Source of the DNA: a virus | DNA length: 64,000 nucleotides | Direction: 5' to 3' (one strand) | IMG/VR virus record: IMGVR_UViG_3300045988_098116 | Coordinates: 19,627-83,626 of that record | Part shown: positions 1,550-63,799 of the stretch, in pieces | Position numbering within the stretch: the first letter of the stretch is position 1 | Layout of the letters: each line of letters starts with the position of its first letter | Notes under the pieces: model-generated | The model's database searches: none | Told to the model about the DNA's origin: nothing | The model's input: the letters and a program-made list of their open reading frames with translations, nothing else | Position numbers and translations under genes: made by a program

Positions 1550-2038
1550 ATGACTACAAACTACACCTGCCCGGAGTGCGGCGCCACCGTTACCCAGGAA
1601 CAGCTCAGCATCAAGGGGATGTGCCCGGAGTGCGGCTGTCCCTCATCTGCCATCTACGCCGCCCAGCAAAAAAAGGACGCGCAGGAACGCCGCGAAAACG
1701 CCGCCAAGGAAGAAGCCGCAGCCGCCGCGCTGCCCAGGACCTCCGACATTCGCTACAAAACCGGAGCCGCCCATATGCTGGAGGTGTTCGCGTACATCGT
1801 CTGGGTATGCGGCGGTATCAACGTTATCGCCATCGCCATCTCGGCCAGCCAGCTTCGTTATTCCTACTATTCCTCCGGCGCAACAGGCACCACGCTGTTT
1901 TTCCTGGCGGTTGCCGCCGCGGTATCCGCCCTGGTTTTCGGCGGCCTGCTCTACGGCGCATCCAAACTGCTCATTGACGTTCACGCCGCCCGCGTAAACC
2001 TGGAACAGCTCAACAAAAAGAAGGAGGCGCAGCAGTAA
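1550..2038 (+). CDS. zinc-ribbon membrane protein
   Basis: N-terminal CPECG...CPECG ribbon, Lys/Glu linker, two hydrophobic helices. Confidence 0.6.
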   Translation: MTTNYTCPECGATVTQEQLSIKGMCPECGCPSSAIYAAQQKKDAQERRENAAKEEAAAAALPRTSDIRYKTGAAHMLEVFAYIVWVCGGINVIAIAISASQLRYSYYSSGATGTTLFFLAVAAAVSALVFGGLLYGASKLLIDVHAARVNLEQLNKKKEAQQ

Positions 2039-2499
2039 TGGCCCTAAAGACCTGTCCCCACTGCGGCCACAGCGTAAGTGACCAGGCCATAAAGTGCCCC
2101 TCTTGCGGCAAGGACCCCCGTTATACAGACTTCCAGCTGGAACAGCAGGAACAGCAGCGCAAGAAAAAGCGCAGAACCGTCGGCATCATCGTCGCCATCC
2201 TCGTAGTGATTATCGCTACCGTCTGCGCTATCTTTCTCCCGAACAGGATTCGCTATCAAAAAGGAATTGCTTGCCGCGAAGCTAAGGACTACGAAACTGC
2301 AGTTGATATTTTTAATTCTCTTGGCAGTTACAGAGATTCCGACCAAATGGCACTATTATCCATGATGGATTACATTTTTGCCCACCCCACCAGTAATGAT
2401 CCCATATCAGTAAAGTACGCCGAGCGGTTAATGGAGGCCGGGTATGCTACATCTCTCCCATCAGACAATCCCAGGGGCACGATTACCCATTCTTCTTAG
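2038..2499 (+). CDS. zinc-ribbon, single-pass membrane protein
   Basis: CPHCG...CPSCG ribbon, basic stretch, TM helix (VGIIVAILVVIIATVCAIFL); TAATG coupling to upstream gene. Confidence 0.6.
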   Translation: MALKTCPHCGHSVSDQAIKCPSCGKDPRYTDFQLEQQEQQRKKKRRTVGIIVAILVVIIATVCAIFLPNRIRYQKGIACREAKDYETAVDIFNSLGSYRDSDQMALLSMMDYIFAHPTSNDPISVKYAERLMEAGYATSLPSDNPRGTITHSS

Positions 2500-2510
2500 T
2501 ACAAAAGCAA

Positions 2511-2546
2511 AACCCCGCACGGCATCAGCCGTGCGGGGTTCTTTTG
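2511..2546 (+). terminator. rho-independent terminator
   Basis: AACCCCGCACG-loop-CGTGCGGGGTT followed by CTTTTG. Confidence 0.7.
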
Positions 2547-2561
2547 CCCATAAAATTGTTC

Positions 2562-2590
2562 TTGACATTTTGCGTTCCATAAACTATAAT
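2562..2590 (+). promoter_or_regulatory. sigma70-type promoter
   Basis: TTGACA (2562-2567), 17-nt spacer, TATAAT (2585-2590), ~30 nt upstream of the RHH gene. Confidence 0.65.
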
Positions 2591-2623
2591 CTAATTATCG
2601 GAACGCAGAAAGTGAGGTGTAAC

Positions 2624-2797
2624 ATGAGTCCGAAAACCGGGCGCCCGAAGTCTAAGCACCCAAAGAATGTTGACGTTAAAGTTCGTTTCGACGAGCTTAC
2701 GCACGAAAAGTTACTGGCGTATTGTGAAGAACACAACATAACCAGAACCGAAGCATTACGGCAAGGTGTGCAGTTACTTCTGACGCAAAAAAAATAA
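2624..2797 (+). CDS. ribbon-helix-helix (CopG/Arc-like) DNA-binding protein
   Basis: 57 aa. Basic N-terminus then VKVRFDELTHEKLLAYCEEHNITRTEALRQGV (beta-strand/helix/helix pattern). Internal ATG of track ORF 2444-2797. Confidence 0.6.
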   Translation: MSPKTGRPKSKHPKNVDVKVRFDELTHEKLLAYCEEHNITRTEALRQGVQLLLTQKK

Positions 2798-2886
2798 ATG
2801 TCTCGCCTCCACCCTTCCACAAGCGAAGCGAAACACTTATCCGCCAGCACCGCACGGGCGCCGTCTAAATCTTATTATAGACGCCG

Positions 2887-2925
2887 CCCCTGCGAAAGTC
2901 AACAGCTTTCTGCAGGGGATTTTTG
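2887..2925 (+). terminator. rho-independent terminator
   Basis: CCCCTGC-loop-GCAGGGG followed by ATTTTTG. Confidence 0.6.
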
Positions 2926-3016
2926 CGCTCATTTTTGGAAATCCACCCTCGGAATCCCTTGACACGGCGTATAGTATGCTGACTACCAAAGATAAACCGA
3001 AAGGAGATTTTCACAG

Positions 3017-3829
3017 ATGAACGACCTCGTGACCATCGGCAACACCCAGTTCACTGCCAAGACGCTGGACGGCAAGCCTGTTCTCACCTTCCATGACATC
3101 GACGCCATCCACCACCGTCCCGAAGGAAGCGCCAGAAAGCGCTTCAACGACAACCGTCAGAGGTTTGTAGAGGGCGAGGACTACATGAAAATTTGCGCGT
3201 CCGAATTTCGGACGCACTTCGATGGACTTTCCAGCAAGGCCACCGAGGACGTATACCTTCTTACCGAGTCCGGCTACCTGATGATCGTCAAGTCCTTCAC
3301 CGACGATTGGGCCTGGGAGGTACAGCGTCGCTTGGTCAAGACCTATTTCCGCGCCAAGGAGCTGGCTGCCGAAAAGCCCAAGCCTATGTCTACCAATGAT
3401 TTGTTTGAGCTGCAGGTAAAAATCAACCGCGAGTACGAGAACAAGATCAATGCGCTGGAGGAACGCGCCGAAAGCGCCGACCGCAAAATCAGCACCATCA
3501 CCGACGTGTTCGCTGCCCCTCCCACCGACGAGGAACGCTGGCGTGACGTGATGAACCGCAAGGTACGCACCATGTGCGAGGAGTACGGTCTGAACTACCA
3601 CACCACCATCGGTGAGATGTACGCCGAGTTGGAGCGCCGTGCCCATGTTAATCTCTCCGTCCGGCAGAAGAACCTCCGTGAACGTATGCGTCTCGGCGGC
3701 GCGAAGTACGCCCAGCGGGAAGCCGTCAGCAAACTGGTGGTCATCTCCCAGGATGCAAAACTTCGTTACATCTACGAGGCTATTGTCCGCGAGAAGGGCG
3801 CCCAACTTGCCGCCTCCCGTATGCACTGA
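3017..3829 (+). CDS. phage antirepressor-like protein (ORF6N/KilA-N type N-terminal domain)
   Basis: N-terminus TIGNTQFTAKTLDGKPVLTFHDIDAIHHRPEGSARKRFNDNRQRFVEGEDY...LLTESGYLMIVKSF is typical of ORF6N/KilA-N DNA-binding domains; RBS AAAGGAG upstream. Confidence 0.7.
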   Translation: MNDLVTIGNTQFTAKTLDGKPVLTFHDIDAIHHRPEGSARKRFNDNRQRFVEGEDYMKICASEFRTHFDGLSSKATEDVYLLTESGYLMIVKSFTDDWAWEVQRRLVKTYFRAKELAAEKPKPMSTNDLFELQVKINREYENKINALEERAESADRKISTITDVFAAPPTDEERWRDVMNRKVRTMCEEYGLNYHTTIGEMYAELERRAHVNLSVRQKNLRERMRLGGAKYAQREAVSKLVVISQDAKLRYIYEAIVREKGAQLAASRMH

Positions 3830-19461: not shown

Positions 19462-19665
19462 TCAGCTGCGCTTACGCTTCTTCCTGTCCTCCGCCGCCGT
19501 CAGCGCGTCGCACTCCTCGTCCGTGGCCGCCCTGATCTTCCGTATATCCGGGTTTCCCTTGCGGTACTGGCTTTCACGGGTGATGTAGTACCGTCCCGTG
19601 ATGCCCGTTATCGGTATTTCTCTGCCGCTTTTCATCACCAGGATGTGCCGTGTCTTTTTCGCCAT
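19462..19665 (-). CDS. hypothetical protein
   Basis: 67-aa ORF from internal ATG (MAKKTRHILVMKSG...). Confidence 0.4.
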   Translation of the reverse strand: MAKKTRHILVMKSGREIPITGITGRYYITRESQYRKGNPDIRKIRAATDEECDALTAAEDRKKRKRS

Positions 19666-35310: not shown

Positions 35311-35386
35311 TGGCGGAAACGGCAGGGTTTGAACCTGCGCCCCTCTGATTAACAGTCAGATGCTCTGCCAACTGAGCTACATTTCC
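35311..35386 (-). tRNA. tRNA-Asn (anticodon GTT)
   Basis: Reverse complement folds as GGAAATG-TA-GCTC..GAGC-A-TCTGA-CTGTTAA-TCAGA-GGGGC-GCAGG-TTCAAAC-CCTGC-CGTTTCC-G-CCA. Confidence 0.85.
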
Positions 35387-35446
35387 GTATGGGGCTTGCG
35401 CCCCCATAAACTCCCTTTCGGGCGAAAACGATCCAACGTTTTCATC

Positions 35447-35521
35447 TGGCACGGACGCGAGGACTCGAACCTTGAACTGCGGTTTTGGAGACCGCCGTTT
35501 TCCCGGTTAAACTAAATCCGC
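35447..35521 (-). tRNA. tRNA-Trp (anticodon CCA), weak acceptor stem
   Basis: Anticodon arm GCGGT-CTCCAAA-ACCGC. D arm GTTT/AAAC. T arm CAAGG-TTCGAGT-CCTCG (one mismatch). Acceptor GCGGATT/CGTCCGT has 4 WC pairs, 2 GU pairs and 1 mismatch. Confidence 0.65.
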
Positions 35522-49428: not shown

Positions 49429-51219
49429 TCATTCCTCTCCAAACCATTTTTTTGTCACCGCGATGGGGAACGGCTCGATCTCGCTTGCCCACCGCGCCGT
49501 GCCTTTGCCGTGTATGCGCTCAAAGCACAGCGCGAACCCACCTATTCCATCAAACAAGCTATCCAGCGTCGCGTCCTCCGGCAAATACCGTGCCATGCGC
49601 CGCAGCATCCAGCCCCAGAAGGGCAGGGCGATGGAGTTGCCCAGCGCCTTGTACCGTGGGCTGTCCGCACTTCCTTTCACTTTTATTTCGCGCCCGCGTT
49701 TATCTGTTTTAACCCAATCTCCAATATCTGTCCATCCGTCCGGGAACCCCTGTAAGCGTTCGCATTCCAACGGGGTCAGACGGCGAACCACCATGTTTTG
49801 GCGGACCGTATTGTTCAGGTTCATGCTTTGGCCTCCGCTTTCCTTTGCCTGCAAGGTTCCGTTGATTTCCCCGCCCTCTGTAAAGTTTCGGCAGTCTACG
49901 GAACATACAAGATCAGTGCTGTCCTTGAAATCTCTCTGCTTGCAACTGCTTGCAACGTCCCCCTCGCGGTAATCGCCAAATCCCTGCATTTGGTACGTCA
50001 GCGGGATTTGGTTGCCGCCTGTTCCCATACGGGCTTGCAACCTCGGCACGATCTCGCCGCAGTCTCGGATGACATCGCAAGCATGGCTCATATCCAGAAT
50101 GGAGGGCTGGTACCCATGCTCCTGTGCTCTCAGCGTCCCGGAAACATCATGGCTCACGCCCATCACATTCCCGCCTTGATCGTTCAGGCACATCACCGCC
50201 GGTTTGTTTCCTCCGTACGCCGCAGTCAGCGTAGAGGCCTGTTCCTCGGCGTATCCGATGCTCCTCGCCTGTTCACTGTTGCCCAGCTTAAAACCGGCAC
50301 ACAGTACGGCTTCGCGGTTCAGACCACTGTTTTCACGGGAACTGAGCGTAGGTGAAACGCCGTTACCATCGTATACGCGCTGGCTCTGTGCGTCCCAAGG
50401 CGTCATGCACACAACCTCCGCACACACAGCAGGACGATCTATGGTATTCAACGTATAGCACACATCTTCCCGCCAGCCTTTCCCATTGCATTCTGCGGTG
50501 TCGGCTCTGTCGATACCGTTGCCTTGCAGGCAGAAAATCGTCTGGTCGTTGCCGGTGCCGAGCGTTCCGCTTTTCTCTGTCTGCACTAACGCGCCTTTTC
50601 CTCCTCCGTCACAGCCCCCCCTGATGCGGACTGCATAAGAAGCACCTGCTTCAGCAGCTTCGGCAAATCCTTCCCCCGCCTCTCTGCTCTCCGCAATATC
50701 CCCTGACACGCTTTCGCGGTCAAATTGTATTTCGGATGCGGTGTCTCCTCCAAAATCTGCGACAACCGAGATACGACGGCGGCGTTGGGGCACTCCCCAG
50801 TATTGCGCATCATGAGTTCGCCACACCACGCTCCATCGTCCTCCCATTTCATCGTGGTACCCTCCCCAGGTAGTCCAGCCCTTTTCAGGCACTTCAATAC
50901 CGGGGGCTTCCGGCTCGACGATTTTGATGATCTCTTCGAGCACGGCTGCGAAGTCTTTTCCTTTGTTGCTGCTAAAGGCTCCGACCACGTTTTCCCACAC
51001 GAGATACCGAGGTCTGACCATGTCACCTGTCCGTCCATTCCTTTTGTCCGCCTCCCTCATTTCTTTTACGATGCGTACCTGCTCCATAAACAGGCCGCTT
51101 CGCGCTCCCGCCAAACCGGCGCGTTTCCCGGCGATGGATAGATCTTGGCACGGACTGCCGCCGGTGATGCACCACACCGGCTCGATCTCCGCACCGTTTA
51201 TCTTGCAGATGTCTCCCAA
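49429..51219 (-). CDS. DNA (cytosine-5)-methyltransferase, apparently circularly permuted, with ~300-aa variable region
   Basis: Motif order along the ORF: GDI, GGSPCQDLS (IV), LVWENVVG (VI), VPQRRRR (VIII), long variable region, RRLTPLECERLQGFP (IX), ALGNSIALP (X), then LFDGIGGF (I) and ASEIEPFP (II) at the C-terminus. Only a TTG start is available. Confidence 0.85.
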   Translation of the reverse strand: MGDICKINGAEIEPVWCITGGSPCQDLSIAGKRAGLAGARSGLFMEQVRIVKEMREADKRNGRTGDMVRPRYLVWENVVGAFSSNKGKDFAAVLEEIIKIVEPEAPGIEVPEKGWTTWGGYHDEMGGRWSVVWRTHDAQYWGVPQRRRRISVVADFGGDTASEIQFDRESVSGDIAESREAGEGFAEAAEAGASYAVRIRGGCDGGGKGALVQTEKSGTLGTGNDQTIFCLQGNGIDRADTAECNGKGWREDVCYTLNTIDRPAVCAEVVCMTPWDAQSQRVYDGNGVSPTLSSRENSGLNREAVLCAGFKLGNSEQARSIGYAEEQASTLTAAYGGNKPAVMCLNDQGGNVMGVSHDVSGTLRAQEHGYQPSILDMSHACDVIRDCGEIVPRLQARMGTGGNQIPLTYQMQGFGDYREGDVASSCKQRDFKDSTDLVCSVDCRNFTEGGEINGTLQAKESGGQSMNLNNTVRQNMVVRRLTPLECERLQGFPDGWTDIGDWVKTDKRGREIKVKGSADSPRYKALGNSIALPFWGWMLRRMARYLPEDATLDSLFDGIGGFALCFERIHGKGTARWASEIEPFPIAVTKKWFGEE

Positions 51220-51240
51220 ATGCTTTATCTCAATCGCCTC

Positions 51241-51516
51241 CTAATCTCCAAACACAACGCCGCACTCGTCCTTCAGCACGTCCTTGATGTGCTTCCGCTT
51301 GATGCGGCCCTCGTTTATTTCCTCTGCCAGCTTCTCCAGGCACTCATACAGATACGCGATGCTGTGGGTGTCCCGGCTGTCCGATGTCTCCTCTAAGACG
51401 TGCCAGCCGCATTTGTCCATCAGCACCATTGCCACCATGTCCATGTTCTCCCGTGTGCCTTGCAGCTTGCCCCGCATAAAGATGCGGTCGTCCCTGCTCA
51501 AATGCTGTTTACCCAT
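51241..51516 (-). CDS. hypothetical protein
   Basis: 91-aa ORF from internal ATG. Confidence 0.45.
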   Translation of the reverse strand: MGKQHLSRDDRIFMRGKLQGTRENMDMVAMVLMDKCGWHVLEETSDSRDTHSIAYLYECLEKLAEEINEGRIKRKHIKDVLKDECGVVFGD

Positions 51517-51709
51517 TCCCGTCGTCCTCCGAAATGTGCACCACCTCATAGCACCCGAACCGTCCGCCGTTTCGATACGCCTTGCATATCGCGCTTCGTG
51601 TGCTGGCGTAGGACCGCCCGGAACGCCGCGCCAGCTCCGCCGTACTCGTGCCCCACCAGCGGGGCAGGCGGTATTTGTCCCGTGACACGATCATATACAC
51701 CGTCGTCAT
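51509..51709 (-). CDS. hypothetical protein (possible small HTH)
   Basis: 66-aa ORF. Confidence 0.45.
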   Translation of the reverse strand: MTTVYMIVSRDKYRLPRWWGTSTAELARRSGRSYASTRSAICKAYRNGGRFGCYEVVHISEDDGNG

Positions 51710-62680: not shown

Positions 62681-63799
62681 ATGTCAACGAAATGCAAGTC
62701 CTGTAAGCGCGAAGTCCCCGACAACGCCACGTTCTGCCCTTGGTGCGGCCAGAAGCAGGTGCGGGAGCGCAAAAAGGACGGCGTTATCAAGGTGCCGGAG
62801 CCAAAGCAGCTTCCATCCGGCAGCTGGCGCATATATCTCCGTGCCGAGCAGCAGTCTGTCACCGAACCTACCAAGGATCGCTGCATCGCAAAGGCCAAAG
62901 CCATCCGCGCCGGCTTTGTGGAGCAGCAGAAAAAAGCAAAAGACCAGCCGCTTCTGCTCTCTGAAGCCATTGAAAATTATATCACGCGCCGTACCCTTCT
63001 CTCTCCCAACACTATCCGCGGCTACCGCATCTATCAGAAAAACCGCTTCAAGTCTTGCCAAGGGGTCAACATACGCGAGCCGGTGGATTGGCAGTCGTAT
63101 ATAAACGAGGAGGCCGCGCTCTGCGCCCCAAAAACGCTGAAAAATGCCTGGGGGTTTATTAAATCCGTCTTAGAGGAAAACGGCATCGCCGCTCCAAAAG
63201 TAACGCTTCCAAAGCTCCCTGTTTCCGAGCATAAGTGGCTCACGCCGGAGCAGATCATCGTATTCTGCAAAGCCATCGAGGGCAAGTCCTTCGAGAAGGA
63301 AGCGCTTTTCGCCCTCCACAGTCTGCGCCGCGGAGAGCTGCTGGCCCTAAAATGGGACGACATAGATTTTAAGTCCGACTCCTTCCGTGTTCATGCCGTC
63401 ATCGCGCAGAACGAAAAGAACGAGTATGTGGAGAAGATAACACCCAAAACCAAAAAGTCCAATCGTGTCGTCCCCTTTATGATCCCCCGCCTCCGCCAGC
63501 TCCTCAAGGATGAAAATGGTCCCAAGGGCAAGCGTGTGTCGTACCAGCCGCCAAACGGGCTCTGGCGCAAGATCAACGATGTCTGCGAAGCAAACGGACT
63601 TCCCAAGGTGGGGGTACATGGTCTGCGCCATAGTTTTGCATCCCTTGCCTACAGTCTCGGTTTCAAGGAAGAGGAATGTATGCGTATCGGCGGCTGGTCA
63701 GATTACAAGGTCATGCACGAAATATATACTCACCTCGCCGCCCGCGACTTAAATGCCCGCGTCAAGGAGATGGAGAATTTTTACAAAGAAAATTTGTGA
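62681..63799 (+). CDS. int: tyrosine integrase with N-terminal Zn-ribbon
   Basis: CKSCKREVPDNATFCPWCG; arm-binding-like SGSWRIYLR; catalytic RRGELLAL...HGLRHSFAS...GGWSDYKVMHEIYTH. Confidence 0.9.
   Translation: MSTKCKSCKREVPDNATFCPWCGQKQVRERKKDGVIKVPEPKQLPSGSWRIYLRAEQQSVTEPTKDRCIAKAKAIRAGFVEQQKKAKDQPLLLSEAIENYITRRTLLSPNTIRGYRIYQKNRFKSCQGVNIREPVDWQSYINEEAALCAPKTLKNAWGFIKSVLEENGIAAPKVTLPKLPVSEHKWLTPEQIIVFCKAIEGKSFEKEALFALHSLRRGELLALKWDDIDFKSDSFRVHAVIAQNEKNEYVEKITPKTKKSNRVVPFMIPRLRQLLKDENGPKGKRVSYQPPNGLWRKINDVCEANGLPKVGVHGLRHSFASLAYSLGFKEEECMRIGGWSDYKVMHEIYTHLAARDLNARVKEMENFYKENL

Follow-up and report, generated by a model that had tools for sequence, protein, structure and literature searches.

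In the C5 cytosine methyltransferases, the order of the motifs is nearly invariant, to the point of being a textbook example. Among the exceptions, the DRM enzymes, which are eukaryotic and guided by RNA-directed DNA methylation, carry motifs VI-X ahead of motifs I-V. Natural permuted C5 methyltransferases further include M.BssHII, M.Alw26I, M2.Eco31I, M.Esp3I and M2.BsaI, together with 22 further REBASE entries, and in the natural M.BssHII-type permutants, the breakpoint lies in the variable region, resulting in the order IX-X-I..VIII (PMC5944983). Of 21 engineered permutants tested, the most active were those of “Class B”, in which the new N-terminus is located between motifs II and III, that is, cp58M.SssI and cp62M.MpeI, the latter comparable to the wild type; this topology was reported to be absent from natural enzymes (Slaska-Kiss et al., PLoS One 2018, PMC5944983). 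Here we describe a gene with precisely this topology on the minus strand (49429..51228) of a 64,000-nucleotide stretch of viral DNA, positions 19,627 to 83,626 of the IMG/VR record IMGVR_UViG_3300045988_098116 (hereafter, the window, that is, the whole stretch analyzed, in the coordinates of which positions are given unless another locus is named). We are quite confident that this gene encodes a single-chain, probably active, phage C5 methyltransferase, the polypeptide of which is a natural circular permutant. The II/III breakpoint, previously only engineered, occurs naturally and on a large scale in phages of gut Oscillospiraceae, and we found no report of a natural II/III permutant in the open-access literature. 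The natural bacterial exceptions known so far all broke the chain in the variable region, and the family described here fills this stated gap.

Motif layout and fold of the permuted methyltransferase

Counted from the TTG codon at 51219 that appears in the gene calls, the methyltransferase open reading frame (ORF; 49429..51219, minus strand) comprises 596 codons, with the stop codon at 49431-49429. The frame remains open upstream as far as a TAG at 51243-51241, and the probable start codon is an ATA at 51228-51226, as discussed below. The motifs follow one another in the order III-IV-VI-VIII-TRD-IX-X-I-II, where TRD stands for the target-recognition domain. Motifs III and IV (51136..51216, minus strand, as are all features of this gene) are represented by GDI (51216-51208, residues 2-4) and GGSPCQDLS (51162-51136, residues 20-28), which holds the catalytic cysteine; motifs VI and VIII (50773..50997), by WENVVG (50997-50980, residues 75-80) and PQRRRR (50790-50773, residues 144-149); and motifs IX and X (49621..49785), by RRLTPLECERLQGFP (49785-49741, residues 479-493) and GNSIALP (49641-49621, residues 527-533). 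Only downstream of these come the relocated motifs I and II (49465..49557) that bind S-adenosylmethionine (AdoMet), namely, LFDGIGGF (49557-49534, residues 555-562) and ASEIEPFP (49488-49465, residues 578-585), and the protein ends 11 residues past motif II, where the canonical relatives run on into “..MKHLGDI”. The same motif positions and order had been given in a first-pass annotation made from the DNA sequence alone, and its proposal of a circular permutation with a breakpoint unlike those of M.BssHII and DRM is borne out, the break being located between motifs II and III.

All the motifs of the C5 superfamily are present, that is, I (FxGxGG), II (acidic), III (D), IV (PCQ), VI (ENV), VIII (QxRxR), IX and X (GNS), and the canonical linear order from I to X is not found in the window protein. 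The non-canonical order is a topological variant, and the protein stays inside the C5 methyltransferase superfamily. The Pfam profile PF00145 matches the protein with 107.8 bits against a cut-off of 22 and, as the first-pass annotation had anticipated, this match is split, in three stretches; the best of these begins at profile position 45, so that motif I is absent from the N-terminus. The profile of the dcm superfamily, TIGR00675, matches with 102.8 bits against a threshold of 100.65. In a phmmer comparison with the Protein Data Bank (PDB), residues 17-33 of M.HhaI (motif I) align with residues 562-578 of the query (in a 603-residue numbering), and motifs IV, VIII and IX of M.HhaI align in the permuted order, in agreement with the split profile match. 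A second, normal motif I upstream, which the earlier annotation had allowed for, was not found: the upstream gene (51241..51549, minus strand; 102 amino acids (aa), function not assigned) has no Pfam or PHROG match, and is kept as a separate 91-aa gene in the relatives.

The topology had been considered plausible from the adjacency of the termini in the fold, and structure prediction sides with this view. With an alignment of 95 diverse sequences, AlphaFold yielded a predicted local distance difference test (pLDDT) score above 90 at residues 1-165 and 475-596, the TRD array lying outside the modelled part. In the C-terminal segment, a strand (552-554), a helix (561-570), a second strand (575-578) and a second helix (583-593) are predicted, the arrangement expected of motifs I-II in the Rossmann-like fold. 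All 21 PDB matches found by Foldseek at E <= 0.001 are C5 methyltransferases (M.HhaI, M.MpeI, M.HaeIII, MET1 and DRM). The best match, over the collinear part only, is M.HhaI (E = 8e-7), with root-mean-square deviations of 1.7-4 Å over about 160 columns, and the matches with weaker E-values, DNMT1, Dnmt2 and ZMET2, are C5 methyltransferases as well.

Compared with the described permutants, the window enzyme has the defining features of Class B, with the chain opened between motifs II and III and closed at the old termini. Like the Class B constructs, it has its N-terminus in the II/III loop, the native termini joined directly and the order III..X-I-II; however, those constructs are laboratory-made and monospecific for CG, whereas the window enzyme is natural and phage-borne, contains a very long modular TRD array and belongs to a large family. 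The M.BssHII type (Type H) likewise has motif X ahead of motif I and presumably originated by duplication and fusion, but breaks in the variable region, whereas the window protein has its ends on either side of the II/III break, ahead of motif III and behind motif II. The fold of plant DRM2, structures of which are among the sequence and fold matches, is permuted too, but with a different breakpoint: motifs IV and VI are contiguous at the N-terminus of the window protein, unlike in the DRM type.

Distribution, selection and origin of the permuted order

The permuted layout is common to all of the best 120 matches among 5.8 billion proteins, with lengths of 531-775 aa and identities of 56% or more. 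Most of the full-length proteins among these 120 start with M[KIVLT]HLGDI..GGSPCQ and end after ..ASEIE.FPIAVTK. The same motif order was found in 80 related IMG/VR loci, and altogether, it recurs in hundreds of phage and prophage contigs of independent origin. When 1.84 billion representative proteins at 50% identity were searched without a word index, 27,902 matched at E <= 0.001; in a motif scan limited to the best 150 of these, 86 were of type B, most of those scanned incompletely are of type B as judged by their termini, and only about eleven were canonical. Among the 122 representatives with a usable catalytic core, a second classification counted 96 as type B and 14 as canonical, three added phage sequences being among the latter. 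As hosts, metagenome-assembled genomes of Oscillospiraceae and other Clostridia (Oscillibacter, Dysosmobacter) were identified, from human, rabbit and yak samples. Relatives about 50% identical to the window protein, with the same order, are encoded in the complete genomes of the cultured Faecalibacterium phages FP_Toutatis and Lelie.

The segment that spans motifs X, I and II evolves under constraint: over 1035 pairs, the median proportions of synonymous (pS) and nonsynonymous (pN) differences are 0.69 and 0.21, respectively, with a pN/pS-type ratio (omega) of 0.095. The relocated I-II segment is under strong purifying selection (omega ~0.1). In the alignment of 95 diverse sequences, PCQ, ENV, the arginine of motif IX, GN and the F.G..F of motif I are invariant or nearly so.

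The breakpoint can be read from a comparison with the canonical relatives, namely, the Ruminococcus phages NatCom_28274 and NatCom_2329, Streptococcus phage Javan422 and Clostridium phage Saumur. The permuted protein has the N-terminus (I)KHLGDI and the C-terminus ..ASEIEPFPIAVTKKWFGEE, that is, “..SEIEPFPIAVTKKWFGEE”, and the corresponding stretch in the canonical relatives is ..FPIRVTTKRLPQMKHYGDV.. The canonical proteins start with “M..TLGSLFDG(I/S)GGF” (“M..TLGSLFDGSGGF”) and read through “..SEIEPFPIRVTTKRLPQ-MKHYGDV..”. The head-to-tail junction of the window protein consists of the 9 residues “LPEDATLDS” (49558..49584, minus strand), in which the old C-terminal helix is linked through “LPEDA” to TLDSLFDGIGGF, apparently the old N-terminus. 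The permuted termini and the junction exactly match the canonical “..FPIRVTTKRLPQ-MKHYGDV..” and “M..TLGSLFDGSGGF”.

The duplication model of permutation is established for methyltransferases, and applied here by inference, it suggests an origin by tandem duplication. A tandem duplication with in-frame fusion would have been followed by the use of the internal methionine ahead of KHLGDI as the start and by truncation behind motif II. The chain starts in the II/III loop and continues through motifs III-VIII, about eight short target-recognition modules and motifs IX-X, and then, via the 9-residue junction, through what was the ancestral N-terminus with motifs I-II, to stop where the ancestor would have gone on into “MKHLGDI”. 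With the two termini lying side by side in the fold, the AdoMet pocket would reassemble in cis.

A third, BssHII-like order, TRD-IX-X-I-II-III-..-VIII-TRD, was found in the P0125 cluster, which has 22 members (for example, L092, nucleotides (nt) 1637-3259) and forms a sister lineage to the window family, next to the subclade of the window. In three independent samples, this gene is complete, with other genes on both sides, and retains both the window-type X-to-I junction and the II-to-III junction. The location of this order beside the subclade of the window, with the X-to-I junction kept, suggests that rearrangement by duplication is ongoing in the clade. Canonical, Class B and BssHII-like orders coexist in this one clade, which makes it a system for studying permutation by duplication and for asking whether topology affects AdoMet affinity or regulation; a lowered affinity for AdoMet in the Class B topology has been suggested by Slaska-Kiss et al. 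For annotation, the implication is that pipelines and searches based on motif order miss or split such permuted genes.

The start codon and competing explanations

Among 52 distinct 5' ends in the family, the start-codon position, two codons before the histidine of KHLGD, is occupied by ATG in 37 cases, GTG in 10 and ATA in 5, and always lies 8-10 nt past a GGAGG-type Shine-Dalgarno (SD) sequence. In the window, the homologous codon is the ATA at 51226..51228, which would be a weak AUA start. The SD sequence AGGAGG (51237..51242, minus strand) overlaps the TAG of the upstream gene and is located 8 nt ahead of the ATA, the same spacing as in the relatives with ATG or GTG. The first-pass annotation, which overlooked the ATA, correctly noted that the frame opens right after the in-frame upstream TAG (51243-51241), and proposed initiation at the TTG (51217..51219; the leucine of KHLGD) by reinitiation or coupling. 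Its statement that neither ATG nor GTG precedes motif IV holds for ATG; an in-frame GTG (Val15, 51177-51175) is present five codons ahead of GGSPCQ, without a Shine-Dalgarno sequence, and initiation from it would yield a protein lacking motif III. The distance between the TTG and the end of GGAGG is 17 nt, rather than 16 nt as stated in that annotation.

Five genes of the family have the ATA, in two different upstream contexts, one shared by the window and L076, and the other, by L027, L030 and L066. These genes are diverged from one another (pS 0.25-0.56), with omega of 0.15-0.29, intact ORFs and no other lesions. In L066, TTA takes the place of the TTG, the open frame ahead of the ATA is only three codons long, and the short frame before motif IV contains no ATG or TTG; an in-frame GTG without an SD sequence lies six codons ahead of GGSPC. 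Given that the ATA occupies the position served by the SD sequence and that the ATA genes are subject to purifying selection, an AUA start fits better than a TTG start. Most likely, the window gene is translated by weak AUA initiation at the SD-positioned codon 51228, possibly aided by coupling to termination of the upstream gene, the stop codon of which is 12 nt away, and such a start would give low expression.

Several observations weigh against the view that the window gene encodes an active permuted enzyme. Foldseek aligned only the collinear N-terminal part of the model (120-167 columns), and with a shallow alignment of 40 sequences that are 77-91% identical to the query, AlphaFold produced an unusable model with pLDDT of 31. 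In a quick neighbour-joining tree of the catalytic core, made without support values, canonical and permuted enzymes are interleaved at the base; without a clean split between the two, a single origin of the permutation is not established. The window copy has no ATG, GTG or TTG at the family start position. Finally, apparently null alleles, with a TAGA insertion, an amber codon at PCQ or poly-G frameshifts, are frequent in the family, and the window copy could be silenced as well.

The last two points bear on the possibility that the enzyme family is real and permuted, while the window copy is a recently silenced allele in which ATG mutated to ATA, and the protein is not made. The ATG or GTG found in 47 of the 52 distinct 5' ends and the common loss-of-function lesions are compatible with silencing, but we consider it rather unlikely, considering the recurrence of ATA in two upstream contexts, the divergence of the five ATA genes with intact ORFs and low omega, the strong SD sequence kept at the ideal spacing, and the window ORF, which has no lesion besides the start codon. 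The alternative that ribosomes initiate at the TTG (51219), or reinitiate once the upstream gene has terminated, with no role for the ATA, is unlikely: TTG is a legitimate bacterial start codon, was picked by the gene callers (P0001) and lies 22 nt past the upstream stop, but its distance from the SD sequence is long, many relatives have TTA, CTC or CTT as the homologous leucine codon, and the TTA of L066 implies that TTG cannot be the general solution. Fusion of the upstream 102-aa ORF and the methyltransferase into one protein by readthrough of the TAG, the only codon that separates the two ORFs in the same frame, is very improbable because the SD sequence overlaps this stop, there is no suppressor tRNA in the window, and in the relatives, the stop codon of the upstream gene is TAG or TGA, located in varying frames, and an ATG or GTG with its own SD sequence follows. 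That the permuted order is an artefact of assembly or rearrangement, as the first-pass annotation had considered, or two adjacent gene fragments fused by error, has nothing in its favour except the oddity itself and is virtually inconceivable, being refuted by the recurrence of the order in the best 120 proteins, the 80 IMG/VR loci and the 50%-identity representatives, with the same junction, in hundreds of assemblies made independently of one another for different studies and hosts, and by its presence in the complete genomes of FP_Toutatis and Lelie.

Variable region, embedded reading frame and variants among relatives

The variable region (49795..50631, minus strand; residues 197-475) consists of about eight short TRD-like modules, T1-T8, of 29-37 residues each, most with a “T-L” core, for example, ..SGTLGTG.., ..YTLNTIDR.., ..SPTLSS.., ..STLTAA.., ..SGTLRAQ.. 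and ..NGTLQAK.. The full T1-T8 set is present in 92 of the 120 homologues, and the rest lack modules or have duplicated or replaced ones; this gain, loss and replacement accounts for the range of lengths among these 120 proteins. Modules of the same types are found in the canonical NatCom enzymes of Ruminococcus phages. The C5 methyltransferases of the Bacillus phages SPbeta, phi3T, SPR, rho11s and H2, studied in Trautner's laboratory, are multispecific and have the canonical motif order. The window enzyme resembles this group in being phage-borne and in the enlarged variable region with short tandem TRD-like “T-L” modules gained and lost among relatives, and differs from it in the permuted order. 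By analogy with these enzymes, multispecificity of the window enzyme is plausible.

The most surprising feature of the locus is a conserved ORF of 150 codons that is embedded in the +1 frame of the methyltransferase gene (50586..51038, minus strand). It overlaps motifs VI-VIII and the linker; the product, starting from the ATG at 51038, runs MDGQVTWSDLG...NTGECPNAAVVSRLSQILEETPHPKYNLTAKACQGILRRAERRGKDLPKLLKQVLLMQS..., with LSQILEETPHPK as an example of a peptide unique to the +1 frame, and a shorter form of 88 aa would start from an internal ATG. The +1 frame stays free of stop codons over 144-184 codons in 69 of 69 distinct relatives, with an identical left boundary. An ATG among the first few codons of this stretch is present in 48 of these 69, and such ATGs are preceded, at 10-12 nt, by an SD-like AAGGAG or GGGAGG. 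Thus, the frame is open, is conserved beyond the demands of the main frame and has its own start signal, as expected of an overlapping gene.

The pattern of substitutions is consistent with two coding frames. Over the +1 ORF, the synonymous fraction of main-frame differences drops from about 0.5 to 0.04-0.2, and third-position diversity, from 0.47 to 0.14, rising again to 0.37-0.60 right after the alternative stop. In the last 36 codons of the overlap, the first main-frame position, which is the alternative wobble position, is the most variable one, above the third. In the linker, the main frame is essentially unconserved between the window and FP_Toutatis, whereas the +1 frame keeps 17 of 27 residues (counted by eye), and in the comparison with Javan422, too, the identity in the alternative frame exceeds that in the main frame. 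Under synonymous shuffling, the p-value was 0.003 in Javan422 and 0.03-0.04 in the NatCom phages, but no lower than 0.12 in the GC-rich window. The +1 ORF is also present in enzymes with the canonical order, with 140 codons in the Ruminococcus phages and 130 codons in the low-GC Streptococcus phage Javan422, and the canonical-phage +1 ORF has the sequence “KACQGIL.RA..RGK.LP” in common with the window; hence the +1 ORF predates the permutation.

The +1-ORF protein has 672 matches among the 5.8 billion proteins, and the 120 of these that are listed are 77-154 aa long, domain-less and unnamed, and come from the same frame. The product has no Pfam match and nothing significant among the PDB sequence profiles, and its only match in PHROGs, phrog_16143, is the same embedded ORF of other phages, under the label “DNA methyltransferase”. 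The C-terminal half may resemble the element “L.eILE..KYYLS” that follows motif VIII in frame in enzymes such as M.Phi3TI, which serves as a lead only. The notion that the +1 peptide occurs elsewhere as an ordinary in-frame domain found no support, the 120 listed matches all being short same-frame calls.

Just before the end of the +1 ORF, the subgroup of the window has a run of seven G (50615..50621, minus strand; also around nt 3429 in L095). With one extra G or a -1 slip, the +1 ORF would be joined to the TRD-IX-X-I-II part in the main frame, and the catalytic part would be cut short. A natural fusion variant of this kind, P0133, with eight G, is represented by four contigs from different samples, and in another, P0186, the protein sequence reads as if the G run was two G shorter. 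The 7-G run is a possible phase-variation or slippage switch, or a sign of decay. In “phasevarions”, homopolymer tracts switch the reading frame of phase-variable methyltransferases; the tracts within methyltransferase genes are the shared feature, and phase variation is only a candidate here. In Escherichia coli, vsr, which encodes a known endonuclease, overlaps only the last few codons of dcm. The +1 ORF is similarly a putative second gene overlapping a C5 methyltransferase gene in another frame, but the overlap covers about 150 codons inside the catalytic core instead of a few terminal ones, and the product has no Pfam or PDB match. No report of an overlapping gene in a C5 methyltransferase was found in the open-access literature.

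On balance, we lean towards a dual-coding gene, in which a conserved +1 protein of about 150 aa (or 88 aa) that predates the permutation would be encoded within the methyltransferase, and slippage or phase variation at the 7-G run, in the subgroup of the window, would toggle the locus between the full methyltransferase and either another product or a split enzyme. If so, the locus, with its natural Class B permutation, would be a compact case in which an anti-restriction enzyme of a phage is plastic both in topology and in reading frame, and the +1 ORF, if expressed, an unusually long overlapping gene in a catalytic core and an unnoticed part of many Firmicutes phage methyltransferase loci.

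Homopolymers are also found elsewhere in the family. Between motifs VI and VIII, there are poly-G tracts of 9 G in FP_Toutatis (L006, ~2840), 14 G in Lelie (L007, ~2845) and 12 G in Saumur (L088, ~2330); the tract breaks the gene, so that two “DNA methyltransferase” coding sequences are annotated in FP_Toutatis. The presence of long poly-G tracts in three cultured gut phages suggests homopolymer-driven on/off switching.

In 22 of the 80 IMG/VR loci (L013-L016, L018, L020, L022, L026, L029, L035, L036, L041, L047, L058-L060, L062, L069, L071, L075, L085 and L086; about nt 2981-3075), the identical sequence GGT GGT TCA CCT TGT TAGA CAG GAT contains a 4-nt insertion, TAGA, which places a TAG directly after the codon of the catalytic cysteine and shifts the rest of the gene to +1. 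These loci belong to two diverged N-terminal subtypes, and the 26 upstream codons are intact. The insertion represents a common null allele or else a candidate site of +1 recoding (UGU UAG A). Recoding or suppression of the TAG itself was rejected: there is no suppressor tRNA in the window, reading TAG as glutamine leaves the frame unrestored in the 22 loci, and the single in-frame amber codon, in L095, has a mutational explanation. In L095 (nt 2888-2915), the glutamine codon of PCQ is mutated from CAG to an amber TAG within CCAGG, the classic hotspot context of 5-methylcytosine deamination; the window uses CAA for this glutamine, so that the CCAGG site is absent. Inteins were observed at SP|CQ, ahead of the catalytic cysteine (P0248, P0268), and at ENV|C (P0148, P0268), with both present in P0268.

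The window is a prophage, with integrase, RecT, DnaD-like, DnaB-like and portal genes. The tyrosine-type integrase is encoded at 62681-63799 on the plus strand, the RecT, DnaD-like and DnaB-like genes are located at 52.5-57.6 kb, and the portal gene, at 39.7-41.5 kb. Within the early or replication module of this Oscillospiraceae prophage, the methyltransferase probably methylates several short sequences, and such methylation would protect the phage DNA against host restriction. Genes for tRNA-Asn and tRNA-Trp are located at 35311-35521 on the minus strand, and the replication and structural genes lie between these tRNAs and the integrase.

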